Below are positions 42,147-51,349 of a stretch of 64,000 bases of DNA, in pieces. The position numbers and the translations under genes were made by a program. The notes beneath the pieces were generated by a model. It was not told the DNA's origin, ran no database searches, and worked only from the letters and a program-made list of their open reading frames with translations. Within the stretch, counting starts at the first letter, position 1. Each line of letters begins with the position of its first letter. This DNA is from Escherichia coli 042 (GTDB lineage Bacteria; Pseudomonadota; Gammaproteobacteria; Enterobacterales; Enterobacteriaceae): the NCBI RefSeq assembly GCF_000027125.1, contig NC_017626.1, one strand, 5' to 3'.

Positions 42147-44534
42147 TTATCCAATACGTGCTCGTGCGCGTTCCTGTTCACGGATCTGCGCCTGAATTTG
42201 TGTATAAAGCTGCGCCTGTTCATTATCGCGATCGGTCGCGGTCACGACCAGTGCGTAAGGCTCCTGCTCGCTGCTGAATGCTTCGCCCCAGTCTCTGTCC
42301 TGACGGGTAACAACAATAAACCATTTTTCATCCGGGTTACGCTGGCGAAAAGTCCAAATCGACGACTGTACCGTCCCGCGTTCCCGCTGTTGGGCTGATA
42401 CAACACGGTTAGTCTGGGCATCATCGGAGCGGGTTTCCGTCTCACTCTGCGTCTGGTGATTAAAACTGGCCTGCACTTCATCCAGCGAGCGGCCCTTAAC
42501 CAGCCGGAAACCGATCCGTGTGGCAGTATAATCCAGCCGGGTGGTACGCACGGCGGGTGAATATGCCAGCGTAACGCGGACTTCACGGGTTGCACGCTGC
42601 GATCGTAAAAAAGAAGCCGGGAAGGGCAGTTCAAAAAATTGGTGCGCGTTATTTTCTATCTGCTCTTCACATCGCATGACCACCACATTTTCAGAAGAAC
42701 GATATAACGCATCTTCATCAATGATGCCGTAGCCTGTCACGTCGCGCTCAATCTCCCGGTTTCTCGTTGCAGGCGCATTTCTATAGCTTTCTCTCATGGC
42801 CTGCGGAAAAGCCTGCGTCATCTCCTGAGAAACAGAAGCATGATTGACCAGCATTGCCCGCAGCATATTGGCAGACATTTCCGGGTATTCATTTAGCAGT
42901 CGACCCGCCAGATGTGTGATATACGGCGCGGCAAAGCTGGTGCCGCTGAGTTCTTTAAACAGCGTATTACCCTGAAACTGGTGATGGCAGCTTAATACGC
43001 CCAGACCGCGCATATGTGCCTGCCATTGCCCTTGCCGAACGTTGGAAGCGACATTGCCACCGTGCGCTACAACGTCAGGTTTAAACGCGCCTTTTACCGA
43101 CGGGCCGTGTCGGGTAAAAGGCGACGGTTGGTTTTCCGTTGCCGGGCTGAGATGCTGAATATCGCCAGGCCTACGCTGCGCATCCAACGTTGCGTTATGT
43201 CTGGCGACGCTGCCCACTGTCAGTACGTTCAGCGCCGGAGCCGGATCGATGATTACGCTGTCCTCATGCAACAGGTAGTCAGGATATTCATCCCGCCAGC
43301 TATTTTGCGGCACCGGAGGATCGTCGCTGCCTGCGAAATTCCCCGCAGAGACGACAAACAGTACATTATATTGCCGCGCCAGCGTATCTAACAGATACGC
43401 CATACCGCGAATATGTTTGCCGTCATAGGGCGCATTAGCATTCCCCAGCGACAGATTGAAAATGCGGCAACCGAGATCGGTAAAATACGCGACGGCGGCT
43501 GTTAGTGTGCTTTCAATCGTTTCGGCATTGAATTCAGCCCGCTCGTTCAGTACTTTCCCGTTATACAGCCATAGCTGCGGCTGCCAGAAATTGCTCTGGT
43601 TACAGGCTTCAACGTCGCCATACAGAGCAATACTCGCTACGGCGGTGCCATGCCCCTCTTGATCAAACGCATCCTGATTGGGAATAAAGCTGGCGCTTTC
43701 AGCAATGGCGGCACTTAACAGAGGGTGATTGGTGTTGATGCCGCTATCCAGAATACAGACTCTGGCCGCATTTACCGCAGGCGAAATCAGATGCTCTGGA
43801 AGTGTATTGATGTCCCGGTTAATTTGTTGATAGCTAATGCCGCTGGACGGTGGCAAATCAACCAACCTGACGTCCCGATGCGCTAACAGGTATTCTGCTT
43901 GCGCGAGCGAAACCTCTATCCGGTACATCAACAGGCTGTCCAGATTGACTTTATCCCGCCAGAGAATCCCCTGCTCTCTGAGCCAATTTTCAAAACGGGT
44001 ATACAGGTCGATACGTCTGGGGTGATGCGCCACATCGACTGGCCAGAGCTCCACATCCAGATTAAAGCGTTCCGCTACAGGAAAACCATAGCGCCGGAGT
44101 GCCCAGCTTTTACGATCTTCCGCCGACCAGCCGTCAATGCCGTCAAGCGCTTCGAGAATATTCCTGTAGGTTAGGTCCGTACGGGGAAGCCCCAGTTGCG
44201 CCAGATGGGTTTCGAAGGTTGTCAGACCCTGCTCATTAGTGAAAACGATACAGACCTGTTTACCTTCCTGACTGATGAACTCCACGCCGTGATGTATCAA
44301 TGCTGAAAAATTCATTGTGCCGCTGTAGTTCAGCTTGAGGATATAGCGCCCGTCATCGGCGCTGCCGGGTACTTGTGCCAGCGTTGGGCGCAAGGTATGG
44401 AGTTGCGTCAACAGCATTTGCCCGTGCTGGCGTAAATCGCCCCTGCGAATACGGGGCATATTGACTCTGCGGGTCCGTCGGTCGTTTTGAAGTGGTGCTT
44501 TGGTAATCGTTAGATGCTGATAATTCGCCGTCAT
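42147..44534 (-). CDS. S8-family subtilisin-like serine peptidase (IetS-like)
   Basis: 795-aa product with catalytic-triad motifs in D-H-S order (CILDSGINTNHP, EGHGTAVASIA, SGTSFAAPYITH); 9-nt gap to the upstream AAA ATPase gene. Confidence 0.85.
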   Translation of the reverse strand: MTANYQHLTITKAPLQNDRRTRRVNMPRIRRGDLRQHGQMLLTQLHTLRPTLAQVPGSADDGRYILKLNYSGTMNFSALIHHGVEFISQEGKQVCIVFTNEQGLTTFETHLAQLGLPRTDLTYRNILEALDGIDGWSAEDRKSWALRRYGFPVAERFNLDVELWPVDVAHHPRRIDLYTRFENWLREQGILWRDKVNLDSLLMYRIEVSLAQAEYLLAHRDVRLVDLPPSSGISYQQINRDINTLPEHLISPAVNAARVCILDSGINTNHPLLSAAIAESASFIPNQDAFDQEGHGTAVASIALYGDVEACNQSNFWQPQLWLYNGKVLNERAEFNAETIESTLTAAVAYFTDLGCRIFNLSLGNANAPYDGKHIRGMAYLLDTLARQYNVLFVVSAGNFAGSDDPPVPQNSWRDEYPDYLLHEDSVIIDPAPALNVLTVGSVARHNATLDAQRRPGDIQHLSPATENQPSPFTRHGPSVKGAFKPDVVAHGGNVASNVRQGQWQAHMRGLGVLSCHHQFQGNTLFKELSGTSFAAPYITHLAGRLLNEYPEMSANMLRAMLVNHASVSQEMTQAFPQAMRESYRNAPATRNREIERDVTGYGIIDEDALYRSSENVVVMRCEEQIENNAHQFFELPFPASFLRSQRATREVRVTLAYSPAVRTTRLDYTATRIGFRLVKGRSLDEVQASFNHQTQSETETRSDDAQTNRVVSAQQRERGTVQSSIWTFRQRNPDEKWFIVVTRQDRDWGEAFSSEQEPYALVVTATDRDNEQAQLYTQIQAQIREQERARARIG

Positions 44535-44543
44535 GGCAGTCCC

Positions 44544-45524
44544 TTATCGGTGGGTTCTGGCGTTTTCTCGCTGAGTTGCGTTTTTTAAATCTTTTAGCGT
44601 CAGGAATTCCTGATGACGCAGGATCATATGCTTGGTTGCCCGACGGACAATGCGCTCAATATCTGCACCGCTTTTCCCGAGCAGCAGGGATAATAGCTCG
44701 CTATCGTCCAGCTCAAACTGACGGCGGGTGCCGCGTAATTTTAACGCCAACAGCTCACGTAACTGCGCCTGATCCGGCAACGGAAATTCAATCACTTCAT
44801 CAAATCGACGCCAGATGGCGCTGTCCAGAATGTGTTCATGGTTAGTGGCCGCCAGAATCAGGCTTTTACCCTGATAAGCATCCATCATTTGTAAAACGGC
44901 ATTGACGACCCGGCGTAATTCACCGTGTTCGCCGCTGTCGCCACGCTCTTTTCCTATGGCATCAAACTCATCGAACAACACCACCATTGGGTGCTCTGCA
45001 ATAAAATCGAAAATTTTACGCAGATTGGCGGCGGTTTCTCCCAAAAACGAAGACACCAGTACGTCGAGGCGGACAATTGCCAGCGGCATGTCCAGTTCAA
45101 AAGCGATAACCTCTGCTGTCAGCGTTTTACCGCAGCCCGGCGGTCCGAAAAACATGATCTTACTGGCTGCTTTCATCCCGTAGCTATGCAATACATCGCT
45201 ACGCCGGTGCTCTTCAAGGAGTTCATCAATCACTGTAGCGCTGGTCGCCGGGAGGATCATTTCATCAAGGCTGCGCTGTGGCTGCCGGAGATCCAGCAAC
45301 GGCAGGCCCCTTTCTTTATCTATCGGTGCTTGAGGAAGCGCAGGCGAGCGCGAAGCCTGAACAAGACGATCGCCGTAAAGAATATGCTCCAGATCGTTAG
45401 CCAGAAGGTGGTGCTGTTTCTGACGTTCCTCATCAATAATGGCTTCCGAAACACGACGGAAAGTAGCGGTATCACCCGTTGCGCCCGCTTTTATTAGTTG
45501 CCTTAATATCTTACCGTTAGCCAT
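44544..45524 (-). CDS. AAA-family ATPase (IetA-like)
   Basis: Walker A GPPGCGKT and Walker B VVLFDEFDA. ATG at 45524 has an AGGAG RBS; the ORF track extends to GTG 45548. Confidence 0.85.
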   Translation of the reverse strand: MANGKILRQLIKAGATGDTATFRRVSEAIIDEERQKQHHLLANDLEHILYGDRLVQASRSPALPQAPIDKERGLPLLDLRQPQRSLDEMILPATSATVIDELLEEHRRSDVLHSYGMKAASKIMFFGPPGCGKTLTAEVIAFELDMPLAIVRLDVLVSSFLGETAANLRKIFDFIAEHPMVVLFDEFDAIGKERGDSGEHGELRRVVNAVLQMMDAYQGKSLILAATNHEHILDSAIWRRFDEVIEFPLPDQAQLRELLALKLRGTRRQFELDDSELLSLLLGKSGADIERIVRRATKHMILRHQEFLTLKDLKNATQRENARTHR

Positions 45525-45549
45525 TATTGACTCCTGAAACCACAGCACT

Positions 45550-48416
45550 TCATGCGGAAGGTGAACTCAACGTCCAGCTCACCGCGAATAATTGACGGGA
45601 CGTTATTTCCGTCGCCAGCTTTTGCTCGACCTCTTCCAGCAGACGGTCCTCTTCCTGCTCGATTTTTTTCTTTTCATCATGATACTGCAACATGATGCTA
45701 TCCCGCTCGCGTTCCAGCACCTTTAATGCGCGCTTGGCTTCCATTTTCTCTTTTAGAGAAGGAAGCTGACGGGCGGCTTTACGCGCCTCTTTAATTTCTG
45801 CATCTAACTGTTTGATACGTAAGTCCAGCGCGATACGTCGATCTTCTGACCAGCGTTCAAGTTTTTCTACTTCTTCATTGTAATAAAGTTCGTTATCGCG
45901 TTCGACCTGTTGGATAAAAGAATGCCGTAAAACCTCACATTGTGTTGTTAACGCAGGCAGCAAAGGCTGTTCTTCGACAGATGTTATCTCTGATAATGGC
46001 AGGCGAAGCAGACGGGATACGGTTTCCTCTGCCAGCACTTCGCCATTTTCTGTAACAGCGACGGTCAATAGTTTCTCTCGCTGTTGCTCCTGATTTCCGA
46101 TGCTGACTTTTGCCAGCAACAGCTGTCCCGATTTCCCGCAGAACAGTTTAACATCGGCCAGTTGTCCGCTTCTGGGTTGGTAGATGAAATGGAGCTTCTG
46201 GCAAACTGGGGATGTGGAAAGGCTTGCCCCTTCATGCAGGGCAGCATCAATCAGTTGCTTCCCATATCCCTGGCTGGGCCGGAAGAATTCGGCATCTTTT
46301 TCATCCGCAATGGGCCAGTTGACGTCAAAATACTTTCCTCTGGAACGAAAACCCGTCTCAGAACGTTGAAAATCGCTCTCGTCGCTCAGAAACATTTCCG
46401 CCAGCAGCAACAGATTTTCCTGGTAATCGTTTAACTGCGCGAGGGTGGTTGTACGTCGGGTTTTCAGATTGCGGACCACATCAACGTCAAAATGCTCGAA
46501 TAATGAACGCCGGGTTTCATTCTCCCGATTTTCCAGTTGATCTTTGAGTTCATCCTGCAGCTGATTAAATTCCTGTTCAATTTGTTCATCGGAGCGGCAG
46601 TGCTGGTATATCTCATGAATACGTCGTTCAATATCAACACCTGATTCGATCGACCCCAGAATGTCATCGGATGCGCCAAACACCCCTTCAAAAAGCTGGA
46701 ACTTCTGGCTCAATAATTCAAACACGCGCTGATCGGCACGGTTGCCTTTATTAATAAAATTAACCACCACGACATCGTGTTTTTGTCCATAGCGGTGAAC
46801 ACGCCCGATACGTTGCTCCACGCGCTGCGGATTCCACGGTAAATCATAATTGATTAACAGCGAACAAAACTGGAGGTTGATACCTTCTGCGCCCGCTTCA
46901 GTACAAATCATCAGGGTGCCTTCGTCCCTGAATTTTTCAACCAGCGCTGCCTTCATATCCGCCGTACTCGAACCGGAAACCCGGCCAGAGTTCTGATGTT
47001 TCTCCAGCCAGTCGCTGTAAATCTTCTTCGACACCGCATCGCTATTGCTGCCATTGAGCAGAACCACTTCTCCCTCGTAGCCACTTTCTGACAACAGTTG
47101 CGCCAGCCAGGTCTGGGTGCGTACGGACTCGGTAAAAATGACCGCCTTACGTAATCCGCCCAGTTCAGCCGTAAAGGTAAAGGCCCGATCGAGAACGCGT
47201 AACAGTGCTTCGGCCTTGGCGTTTTTGGTAATCGATGCCGCTAAAGTCTTATAATTTTTTAACTGGTCAATTTCGGCCTGTAGCGCCTGAGGATCGATGG
47301 TATCTTCGTCATCAATGCCTTCTTCATCGCTGTAATCGTCGTAATTTTCATAATCCGTCAGCGCATCCAGCACCGGCATTTTACTTTCAAGACGGTGGAT
47401 CATCGTTTCCAGCGTTCCCTGGATCGCTGTAGACGATGAGGCCAGAATTTTACGAATGACTAACGTTACTAGGTGACGCGCGCCGCTTTTGATCGCCAGT
47501 AGATCGTCCCGCTGCAAATAAGAGGAAACCTGTTTATAGAGCACTTCTTCGTCTTCCGTCGGACGAAAGTCTTCGGTTATTGAATGGCGTCGGGTAAAAC
47601 TGATCCCGCCTTCCTGCTGAACCTGTCGACGAAGCGTTCGATTACAGATTTTATTCAGACGAACCCTTAATAATGCCAGTTCTGCATCGTCAATATTCTG
47701 TCGGGAATAACGGGCCTTGAACGAAGCAAGGTCGCCGAAAAAATGAGGATCAATCACGGAAATCAGGCCGTAAAGCTCAAGAATACTGTTTTGTAGCGGC
47801 GTGGCGGAAAGCAGTATTTTTTTTCTGCCGGACAGTGCGCCACTGAGTTTTTTGGCTGTTTTAGCGCCATCGTTCTTGTAGATATTACGCAGTTTATGCG
47901 CCTCATCCATGACGACCAGATCCCACGGGATTCGTGCCAGCTCGTGCTCTTTACGGGCAGCGAATTCGTATGAACAAATGCAGATCGCCGCTTTCCCGGT
48001 TGCATTTTCAATATCAAAGGGATTATCGCTCCCCTCTTTAACCATTTGATTGAAGATCTTCGCTTCAATAATTTGTGAAGGCAGCGAAAATTTCTCTTCC
48101 AGCTCCTGGCTCCACTGCTTGCGTAGCGTTGCGGGTGCAATCAGCAACAGTTTTCGGCGGCGTTCAGCCCATTTTGCGCCAAAATCAGGCTGGCCTCAAT
48201 AGTTTTCCCCAGTCCCACTTCATCGGCCAGGATCACGCCATTCGACAGGGGAGATGCCAGCGCAAACATCGCAGCCTCTACCTGATGAGGATTCATATCA
48301 ACCCGTGCGCTGGCAATAGTTTGCGTCAGCGAGTCCTCGGCTTTGCCGCTTAACGTCAACCAGTGGGCCAGATAACTACGTTGGTGATCTGAATACATTT
48401 TCATACCTTTGTGCAA
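45550..48416 (-). pseudogene. SNF2-family helicase-like protein with C-terminal coiled coil, split by a frameshift at a T4/A4 tract
   Basis: N-terminal 91-aa ORF carries motif I (ADEVGLGKTIEAS); the 865-aa ORF carries DEAH (VVMDEAHKLRN) and helicase C motifs (QRIGRVHRYGQ). The downstream frame reads KWAERRRKLLLIAPATL upstream of its ORF-track start, so the frames join at about 48160-48166. Confidence 0.78.
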
Positions 48417-48698: not shown

Positions 48699-49402
48699 AT
48701 GAGACGATTACCGCTGATGGTGGGCGTGATAGTGGGCGTAATGCTGGCTGTCGGCTGCCATGACCGTAGGGCTGGTGTGAGGACGCTGCTGGGCGATGGC
48801 GTGGAGCAATGGGGGCAGAAGTTGCCTTACGACCACTGGGAATTCAATTTTTTTACCCGAAAAATCTGCCGGCACTGGTGACAATGGTGTATCTGGAGGA
48901 CGGGGATATCCGGGAGAGCTTTTTCCGGCGACTGGATCCGACTGAACCCAGTCAGAGCAGTGTGGGAAAATGGAGCCAGCACGTAGGCGGTTTTTTAGCC
49001 AGTTTTAATATTGGCAAGGCGCTGCCTGTCAGGATGACGGTATGCTGGGACTCAGTTATCGATAAAAAGGCGTATGAGACGGAGATCTGGTTCAGCCGGG
49101 ATACGTGGCAGCAGATGCTGACTGCCTATCCTGATACTTATCGTCCGGGAAAAATATATTACCGAAACAAAATGATTATTGGCCTGCCCCCCGGTGGTAA
49201 AGTCAGGGTATGGTTAAAAGACAATCGTAATCCTGTTGTACTCCAGAATCCTGCCCGACAGTTCACCCTGACGGGAGATGATATGCTGATATGCAAAAAT
49301 GTTCCCAACAAGATTGATTTCAGTTACATCAAGGCTAACGGTTACGATCCATTTATCCGCGATTTTATCAAGGAAAAGCCCTATCCGTATGGTCACTGGT
49401 AG
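48699..49402 (+). pseudogene. Putative lipoprotein, frameshifted at a T7 tract
   Basis: ATG 48699 with a GAGGAGG RBS; signal peptide and lipobox (MRRLPLMVGVIVGVMLAVGC). The frame terminates shortly after a T7 run (48848-48854) and continues in another frame to 49402 (197-aa ORF). Confidence 0.5.
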
Positions 49403-49424
49403 GGCGCAACGATCAGCAAAATTA

Positions 49425-49785
49425 AAATGATCTTCTTGAGATCCTTTTAAGCTGCGCGTAATCTTCGGCTTGTAAACGGAAAAAGCCGCCTTGCGGCGGC
49501 TTTTTCCGTCCGATTAGAAGTCTTCGACCTCTTCTAATCGACTGTGGTAACTGGCTTGATGGAGCACAGATACCAAATGCTGTCCTTCCAGTGTAGCCGC
49601 TATAAGGCTTCAACTTCAAGAGTTCTGCGTATCTAAATCCACTATCCAGTTACCAATGGCTGCTGCCAGTGGCGTTAAGTCGTGTCTTACCGGGTTGGAC
49701 TCAAGACGATAGTTACCGGATAAGGCGCAGCGGTCGGGCTGAACGGGGGGGCGTGCACACAGCCCAGCCTAGAGGACTCGACTTA
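49425..49785 (+). other. ColE1/pMB1-type plasmid replication origin remnant (RNA II 5' region with antisense RNA I region), truncated
   Basis: Strong similarity to the ColE1-family ori as I recall it (GATCTTCTTGAGATCC, GTAACTGGCTT, CAGATACCAAAT, CTGCTGCCAGTGGCG, TAAGTCGTGTCTTACCGGGTTGGACTCAAGACGATAGTTACCGGATAAGGCGCAGCGGTCGGGCTGAACGGGGGG), with divergent stem-loop sequences. Homology ends near 49785, before the origin proper. Confidence 0.75.
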
Positions 49786-49867
49786 TTTAATTGTGTAAAC
49801 AGGGCCTCTCCGCGAAAGACCCTTATGCATCACCTGACGTTAAAAGTCACTACACCCAAGATGACGT

Positions 49868-50247
49868 TCAATGGCACCATGTGATTTCAATGTAAGCCCG
49901 GGCCGTCTGTTCCAGTACACCAGGCTCAGCGTTGTATGTGTTAGCTGCATCAAATACCAACGTCAGCACTTCAGGATACACAACCAGATATGTAATGGAG
50001 TTATCTTCATCCAATACTTTTCCCCACGCCTGCTCAATCAGATTTCTGAGAACCACCACCTCACGACTCTTACACCAGACATCGTTATTAAGTAGCAGCA
50101 CCATAAGATAAGGAGTGGTATCGTTAGCCACAGCCTCCCTGCTCCAGAGATAATATAAAGGGGGGGCTCAACAGATTGATCTTTACGTCGCTTACACTGC
50201 AAATATTCAGAAATGAGTCTATGCATTTCACCAGTAAAATCAGCCAT
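49868..50247 (-). pseudogene. Hypothetical protein split across two frames at a G7 tract
   Basis: 69-aa ORF (50038-50247) and 87-aa ORF (49868-50131) overlap in different frames. One extra G in the G7 run at 50159-50165 would fuse them into about 126 aa. Confidence 0.3.
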
Positions 50248-50271
50248 CAGAGAGGGGGTAATGACTCCAAC

Positions 50272-50649
50272 TTATTGATAGTGTTTTATGTTCAGATAAT
50301 GCCCGATGACTTTGTCATGCAGCTCCACCGATTTTGAGAACGACAGCGACTTCCGTCCCAGCCGTGCCAGGTGCTGCCTCAGATTCAGGTTATGCCGCTC
50401 AATTCGCTGCGTATATCGCTTGCTGATTACGTGCAGCTTTCCCTTCAGGCGGGATTCATACAGCGGCCAGTCATCCGTCATCCATATCACCACGTCAAAG
50501 GGTGACAGCAGGCTCATAAGACGCCCCAGCGTCGCCATAGTGCGTTCACCGAATACGTGCGCAACAACCGTCTTCCGGAGCCTGTCATACGCGTAAAACA
50601 GCCAGCGCTGGCGCGATTTAGCCCCGACATAGCCCCACTGTTCGTCCAT
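50272..50649 (-). CDS. insB: IS1 InsB reading frame (expressed as InsAB' by frameshifting)
   Basis: 125-aa ORF matching the IS1 InsB C-terminal region ([47 protein letters not shown]). Confidence 0.8.
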
Positions 50650-50693
50650 TTCCGCGCAGACGATGACGTCACTGCCCGGCTGTATGCGCGAGG

Positions 50694-50969
50694 TTACCGA
50701 CTGCGGCCTGAGTTTTTTAAGTGACGTAAAATCGTGTTGAGGCCAACGCCCATAATGCGGGCAGTTGCCCGGCAGCCAACGCCATTCATGGCCATATCAA
50801 TGATTTTCTGGTGCGTACCGGGTTGAGAAGCGGTGTAAGTGAACTGCAGTTGCCATGTTTTACGGCAGTGAGAGCAGAGATAGCGCTGATGTCCGGCGGT
50901 GCTTTTGCCGTTACGCACCACCCCGTCAGTAGCTGAACAGGAGGGACAGCTGATAGAAACAGAAGCCAC
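50694..50969 (-). CDS. insA: IS1 InsA
   Basis: 91-aa product [43 protein letters not shown] matches IS1 InsA. Confidence 0.9.
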
Positions 50970-51349
50970 TGGAGCACCTCAAAAACACCATCATACACTA
51001 AATCAGTAAGTTGGCAGCATCACCTGTTCCCAAAATTTTATTTATCTTCATCACTTACAGAGAATGCTCAACATTTGCTAGTCTTTTCCTGTCCTGGTAT
51101 CCAAAGTCTCCTCCCAAATATCCTGGATACTAGCTTAGACAAAATGAGATTATATTTATGGTAAATTATATCATAACAGCTTTTGTTAAGGATGCTGTGT
51201 AAGATAAAATATATGGGTTAGAGGCAGATTCTTTTGCAATCAGGAAGAAGATAATCACTGATGTTATCGGATATGTAGCAGTATTCGTTATAGCTATTTA
51301 GAGAAATTTGTGCCACAATTTATTATAGAGTTTAAAGAAAAATATATTG

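Follow-up and report, generated by a model that had tools for sequence, protein, structure and literature searches.

The YagK/YfjJ protein family (PF11726, formerly DUF3296 / Inovirus_Gp2) is named for YagK and YfjJ of Escherichia coli K-12 and is associated with cryptic prophage-like islands. A literature search on YfjJ and YagK returned passing mentions only, with no functional study and no experimental function. Here we describe a damaged copy of such a gene in the window, by which we mean the whole 64,000-nucleotide stretch of E. coli DNA that was analyzed. This copy is a significant match to the family and has a similar context, since it lies in an integrase-bearing island at a tRNA-Phe gene. 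In the less decayed islands of Nissle and CFSAN004176, zinc-ribbon genes and a second Gp2-family gene adjoin the corresponding gene. The window copy differs from the family in that it is without codons 1-50, contains two frameshifts, and has no uninterrupted ORF with a start of its own.

Two other described systems are relevant here. In IS1-mediated adjacent deletion, as at this locus, a complete 768-bp IS1 element (here abutting codon 51) borders the loss of neighboring DNA with no target duplication, and the upstream sequence found in CFSAN004176 and Nissle is gone. The difference is that the event in the window is reconstructed from its end state. The locus also resembles the contingency loci of Neisseria, Haemophilus, and Campylobacter in having a poly-C tract within a coding region, whose length (7 to 11 among strains) sets the reading frame. 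Unlike at those loci, most strains carry an interrupted tract and the window gene is otherwise dead, and neutral decay fits these features better.

Our analysis suggests that an overlapping pair of small ORFs in the window is, very probably, the non-functional relic of a single YagK/YfjJ-family gene that was cut by IS1 and by two one-base slips. The features involved are listed in Table 1.

Table 1. Positions of the ORF pair, its lesions, and neighboring features in the window
Feature	Position	Strand	Remarks
Defence-type gene cluster	37637-48398	-	DrmD-like SNF2, IetA, IetS, Type III mod/res
Type III res	37637-40507		Intact
Type III mod (methyltransferase)	41416, within 40510-42137	-	One-base CC to C deletion, ACGCCAAC to ACGCAAC
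SNF2 / DrmD-like helicase gene	45550-48398	-	Frameshift at T4, 48172-48175
DUF2931 lipoprotein gene	48699-49402	+	Split by T7, 48848-48854
Captured ColE1-type plasmid origin fragment	~49400-49774		Adjoins the remnant on its downstream side
RNAI antisense RNA gene	49476-49581	-	Rfam RF00106, 59.9 bits against a gathering score of 47
YagK/YfjJ pseudogene remnant	49840-50256	-	Codons 51-188 and stop of a 188-aa gene
87-aa ORF	49868-50131	-	GTG start (spurious); middle of the ancestral protein plus a spurious 6-residue end
T3 (A3 on the coding strand)	49885-49887	+	+1 insertion; A2 is present in every intact relative examined
69-aa ORF	50038-50247	-	ATG start is internal Met54 of the ancestral protein
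G7 (C7 on the coding strand)	50160-50166	+	-1 frameshift relative to the in-frame C8 and CCCACCCC alleles
IS1, 768 bp, insA/insB, inverted ends	50257-51024	-	Right end abuts codon 51 of the YagK/YfjJ gene
P4-type tyrosine integrase of the island	51382-52644	-
tRNA-Phe (GAA)	52842-52917	-	Island attachment site
Flank beyond tRNA-Phe	53024-64000		TetR-type ORF, dsbD, dcuA, aspA, groL

The ORF pair and its protein family

The 69-aa and 87-aa ORFs lie in different frames and overlap by 94 nt, as the initial annotation of this DNA had claimed. The G7 run on which that annotation relied is the sole G run near the pair, and its true position is one base higher than the 50159-50165 originally given. 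Codons 1-28 of the 69-aa ORF are genuine YagK/YfjJ codons 54-81, and the remainder is out-of-frame read-through. The 87-aa ORF is carried in RefSeq as a 'hypothetical protein' (WP_001387038.1 in FORC_069). Scanning the coding strand for promoters and terminators turned up no promoter-like site and only the hairpin of the RNAI region, and neither ORF is preceded by a start signal or recognizable ribosome-binding site. IS1 points in the same direction, and transcription that reads out of the element could nevertheless extend into the remnant.

Adding one C to the coding strand in silico joins the two ORFs into a 126-aa product (MADFTGEMHRLISEYLQ...EITWCH). The match of this fused reading to PF11726 (residues 3-102, E = 4.3e-8, 33.7 bits against a gathering cut-off of 25.8 bits) spans the junction, whereas the 87-aa ORF by itself scores only E = 0.054 against this Pfam family and the 69-aa ORF by itself has zero Pfam matches. 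Because the match crosses the junction and the separate ORFs have none like it, the fusion is more than a chance reading. It covers positions 30-133 of the 170 in the profile, which falls short of the whole domain. A protein search with the fused sequence finds 51 homologs, and the best of these are 188-191-aa E. coli proteins with 93-95% identity that are named 'YagK/YfjJ domain-containing' or 'inovirus-type Gp2' protein. At least 80% of the segment is present in 845 of 5,426 complete E. coli genomes, most of which have an annotated intact gene.

The intact 188-191-aa relatives themselves match only profile positions 26-135 of 170, with about 39-40 bits, while a neighboring paralog in UMNK88 (L003:6550-7119) matches positions 3-170 with 157 bits. 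With this partial coverage and modest score, the 188-aa 'intact' reference may already be a degenerate family member. In relatives, a 65-aa ORF is found directly upstream of the intact 188-aa gene (L005 168-365 / L010 7213-7410), and it matches the C-terminal end of PF11726 (profile 119-167) that is missing from the 188-aa gene. From these matches, the arrangement looks like two YagK/YfjJ copies that are permuted or have been truncated in tandem.

Other resources say little about function. Neither the fused reading nor the intact protein and its paralog have an NCBIfam match, and PHROGs matches are confined to families of unknown function. One of these, phrog_32179 (87 positions), appears to have been built on the fragment ORF itself. 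A sequence search of the PDB returned alpha-lactalbumin matches at chance level (E >= 0.017), from which no structural inference was drawn.

Reconstruction of the ancestral gene

The lesions were located by alignment with Nissle 1917, E62, UMNK88, and CFSAN004176. The last of these is the most direct comparison, as it has the same allele background (GEMHRL, KDQSVE, LDEDNS), the same island neighborhood, and an intact 188-aa PF11726 gene. Its tract is C8 and encodes VEPPPLYYLW, whereas that of the window is C7. Within the remnant, the ancestral reading begins in one frame (A, 50256-50167), moves to another (B, 50159-49888), and then returns to frame A (49884-49840). The second change is due to an extra A that turns the ATTGAATCAC of every intact relative examined into ATTGAAATCAC. 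This A3 run puts the reading back in its original frame, but the product of the 87-aa ORF ends early at EITWCH followed by a stop. The EITWCH end is consequently an artefact of the extra A, and the true end is ESHGAIERHLGCSDF.

If both indels are repaired in silico, then a 138-codon ORF results that ends in ESHGAIERHLGCSDF and differs by 4 substitutions from the CFSAN004176 protein over residues 51-188. The remnant has 95% identity to the 188-191-aa proteins (P0001/P0003). The proposal that a G8 tract would fuse the two ORFs into about 126 residues therefore stands as far as the fusion goes, since this is the C8 reading of CFSAN004176. The 126-aa product is not a real protein, because 50 N-terminal codons are missing and its C-terminus is wrong. 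The IS1 5' truncation, the A3 insertion, and the mod frameshift at 41416 were all absent from the earlier description. As judged from these alignments, the window locus is a triply damaged pseudogene of the YagK/YfjJ family rather than a functional member.

Truncation by IS1

Codons 1-50 of the YagK/YfjJ gene are missing beside IS1. The undeleted order in CFSAN004176 is a Gp2-family gene, two zinc-ribbon genes, the 65-aa YagK fragment, the 188-aa gene, the ColE1 fragment, DUF2931, and SNF2. The window is without the genes upstream of the 188-aa gene in this order, up to a point shortly past the 3' end of the integrase gene. The IS1 flanks (TTGGGAACA / CCCTCTCTG) do not form a target-site duplication, which suggests an IS1-associated deletion between int and codon 51. 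IS1 would first have inserted and then caused the adjacent deletion. Recombination between two IS1 copies would leave the same end picture.

UMNK88 has C7 and A3 and no IS1, and was considered as the ancestral IS1-less state. This was rejected, as UMNK88 lacks 7 bp of the gene that the window keeps and its junction falls on a TGATG repeat common to the IS1 left end and the gene. With IS1 and these 7 bp lost while C7 and A3 are kept, UMNK88 derives by a secondary deletion from a window-like state. The junction itself (L003 4980-5010 compared with window 50248-51031) has the form of a near-precise IS1 loss via 5-bp TGATG microhomology.

Tract alleles across E. coli genomes

The most common allele at the tract is the interrupted CCCACCCC, which encodes EPTP and occurs in about 300 of 377 genomes. 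Uninterrupted runs of five lengths, each verified by sequence, make up further alleles: C7 in 46 genomes (including the window, UMNK88, and FORC_069), C8 in about five (including SCU-106 and CFSAN004176), C9 in eight (including S1-CHI-01-A), C10 in 12 plus A24 for a total of 13 (including STEC17-183), and C11 in one (OkiPb01717). Some of the C9-C11 calls may be long-read homopolymer errors. Genes with in-frame lengths (8 and 11) are annotated as intact, and those with out-of-frame lengths are annotated as split hypotheticals. A 71-mer centered on the C7 tract is 100% identical in the 46 complete E. coli genomes, which include O104:H4 outbreak isolates, FORC strains, ETEC TW10722, NCTC9082, and a swine isolate. 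C7 and A3 occur together in all four C7 copies that were aligned (window, FORC_069, AST81, and UMNK88), and three of the four, UMNK88 being the exception, also have the IS1 truncation.

On the simplest reading of these alleles, an A-to-C substitution in CCCACCCC created the homopolymer that then slipped. Alternatively, CCCACCCC could have lost its A directly to give C7, a route first suggested by the Nissle alignment. We favor a C8 intermediate, because C8 is present on the same allele background in CFSAN004176; in fact C7, C8, and C10 are all found on the background of the window (in the window, CFSAN004176, and A24, respectively). The C8 run would have been prone to slipped-strand mispairing in replication. 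Once the gene was dead, such slips would have been neutral and would have been inherited by all descendants of the island lineage. Both ORFs would then be by-products of the lesions, and a working protein would be expected from neither. The predominance of out-of-frame lengths is what would be expected if a dispensable gene were decaying neutrally, and fits an adaptive switch less well.

Other frameshifts in the window

Two more homopolymer frameshifts had been reported close to the ORF pair, a T4 in the SNF2 gene and a T7 in the lipoprotein gene, and both are real differences from relatives. The DUF2931 T7 is common to about 60 genomes. By sequence, CFSAN004176 has T8 and an intact 234-aa lipoprotein-like protein, and in at least three relatives (CFSAN004176, CE0007a, and TW10573) a 142-nt match to the 141-nt query accompanies a single DUF2931 annotation. 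The SNF2 T4 is found only in the window and in none of 65 close relatives, all of which have T5 and an intact 949-aa gene. A further frameshift, in mod, is also private. This deletion splits mod into 247-aa and 302-aa ORFs in the window, whereas in all 65 relatives the additional C is present and the gene is intact at 542 aa.

Longer alignments place these changes in context. There are 4 mismatches and 0 gaps between window 1-25100 and BR1220, and window 52900-64000 is 100% identical to many genomes. Between window 26500-52965 and AST81 there are only the two private sites, if one sets aside the final 30 bp past the tRNA, which are divergent and contain two indels. In the ~62 kb compared, the only private indels are thus the SNF2 T4 and the mod CC to C deletion, both of which lie in the defence-gene cluster. 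Each may be either a real strain-private mutation or an isolated assembly error.

The initial annotation offered systematic sequencing error or a strain undergoing gene decay as explanations for these frameshifts, and comparison with related genomes was one of the checks that it proposed. That comparison, which finds C7 shared by 46 complete genomes and T7 by about 60, has been carried out here. Systematic error is excluded by the lack of other indels relative to close relatives in ~62 kb. Across the genomes compared, the C7 frameshift is an inherited mutation and not a sequencing error. Gene decay of the island is supported by the same comparisons, but the C7 and T7 lesions are old and belong to the island lineage rather than to this strain.

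Alternative explanations

If the G7, T7, and T4 runs were homopolymer under-calls made in sequencing or assembly, then the living strain would have intact genes. Each of the three differences from CFSAN004176 does shorten a homopolymer by one base (8 to 7, 8 to 7, and 5 to 4), as errors of some platforms usually do, and the SNF2 and mod changes are seen in no other genome. We regard this explanation as extremely improbable, and for G7 and T7 it is already refuted by relatives that have the same state. The genomes that share C7 or T7 come from different laboratories, years, and hosts, and C7 is accompanied by independent lesions, A3 in the four copies aligned and the IS1 truncation in three of them. 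Comparisons with relatives over 25.1 kb and 11.1 kb have zero indels and a further 26.5 kb has only two. Even a G8 tract would restore no gene, because of IS1 and A3. The poly-C tract could instead be a phase-variable switch that turns expression ON and OFF by reversible slippage, with the window caught in the OFF phase. Tract lengths of 7, 8, 9, 10, and 11 among complete genomes, of which 8 and 11 are annotated as intact and the others as split, are what such a switch would produce, as is the occurrence of three lengths on one allele background. However, CCCACCCC is interrupted and non-slippery in most genomes, and out-of-frame lengths dominate among the rest (46 C7, 8 C9, and 13 C10, compared with about 5 C8 and 1 C11). 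Tract length does not vary among the 46 C7 genomes, and no tract change would restore function in the window after the IS1 truncation and A3. A switch of which the window shows the OFF phase is accordingly an extremely remote prospect. It is very unlikely, too, that in islands of E. coli the poly-C tract truly switches by phase variation (ON at C8/C11, OFF at C7/C9/C10) and that the copy in the window was locked OFF and later decayed.

Recoding would offer another route to a fused protein, by -1 ribosomal frameshifting or by transcriptional slippage on C7. Homopolymer runs are able to provoke RNA polymerase slippage, and the ancestral reading EPPPLYYLW is exactly what would result from a -1 shift on the run of C. 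This possibility has a negligible probability. The two-frame architecture is not conserved, as relatives with CCCACCCC, C8, or C11 have one continuous ORF, and the run, read in the zero frame as CCC CCC C, does not form an in-phase heptamer of the canonical X XXY YYZ type. The product would still be without 50 N-terminal residues and would have the wrong C-terminus, and a promoter or start signal was not found on the coding strand. The relic of an IS1-truncated gene with two one-base slips remains by far the best account of the ORF pair.

Island context

The locus lies at the end of a pic/T6SS pathogenicity island at a tRNA-Phe gene in E. coli. On the minus strand the order from the tRNA is integrase, IS1, the ORF pair, a ColE1-type origin fragment with full RNAI, the split DUF2931, and the split SNF2. 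Beyond SNF2 are IetA, IetS, and the Type III restriction-modification pair, and then pic and the type VI secretion cluster. The SNF2 helicase is recognized by PADLOC as DrmD (669 bits), IetA is an AAA ATPase, and IetS is an S8 peptidase (1206 bits). AST81 is among the relatives in which this defence cluster is intact, whereas its SNF2 and mod genes carry frameshifts in the window. In the relatives whose flank was examined (FORC_069, AST81, and UMNK88), the pic/T6SS island is at the speC-yqgA tRNA-Phe. Homology between the window and relatives is lost in the last ~30 bp before 52965. The different tRNA-Phe flanks of the window and its relatives show that the island has used both Phe-tRNA attachment sites, each in different strains.

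The region from ~48699 to 49774 is a captured piece of a small ColE1-type plasmid in the chromosomal island, composed of the origin fragment and the DUF2931 gene. The same ori-DUF2931 pairing is seen on plasmids, both ColE1-like ones of 5-7 kb and larger ones, with 98.1% identity for the best plasmid match and 91-92% for the others among the matches listed. The PGAP name 'replication initiation protein' for a 48-aa ORF in the origin is probably a mis-annotation. Relative to CFSAN004176, the window also has a ~25-nt hairpin insertion (GCCGCAAGGCGGC) at ~49472-49497.

Implications

A triply damaged island gene is of an ordinary kind that is already known and annotated, and the locus carries little biological weight beyond being a case of routine island erosion through IS truncation and homopolymer slippage. 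If the phase-variation reading were true, then the tract would be a rare case in E. coli of contingency that depends on a homopolymer. The 87-aa 'hypothetical protein' (WP_001387038.1 / WP_001406640.1) that appears in dozens of RefSeq genomes should be flagged as a pseudogene fragment. The separation of shared from private frameshifts also indicates that the window is not full of homopolymer errors. Strain-private frameshifts occur only in two adjacent defence-type genes, the DrmD-like SNF2 and the Type III mod, and they may be of use for studies on defence-system loss in this lineage.
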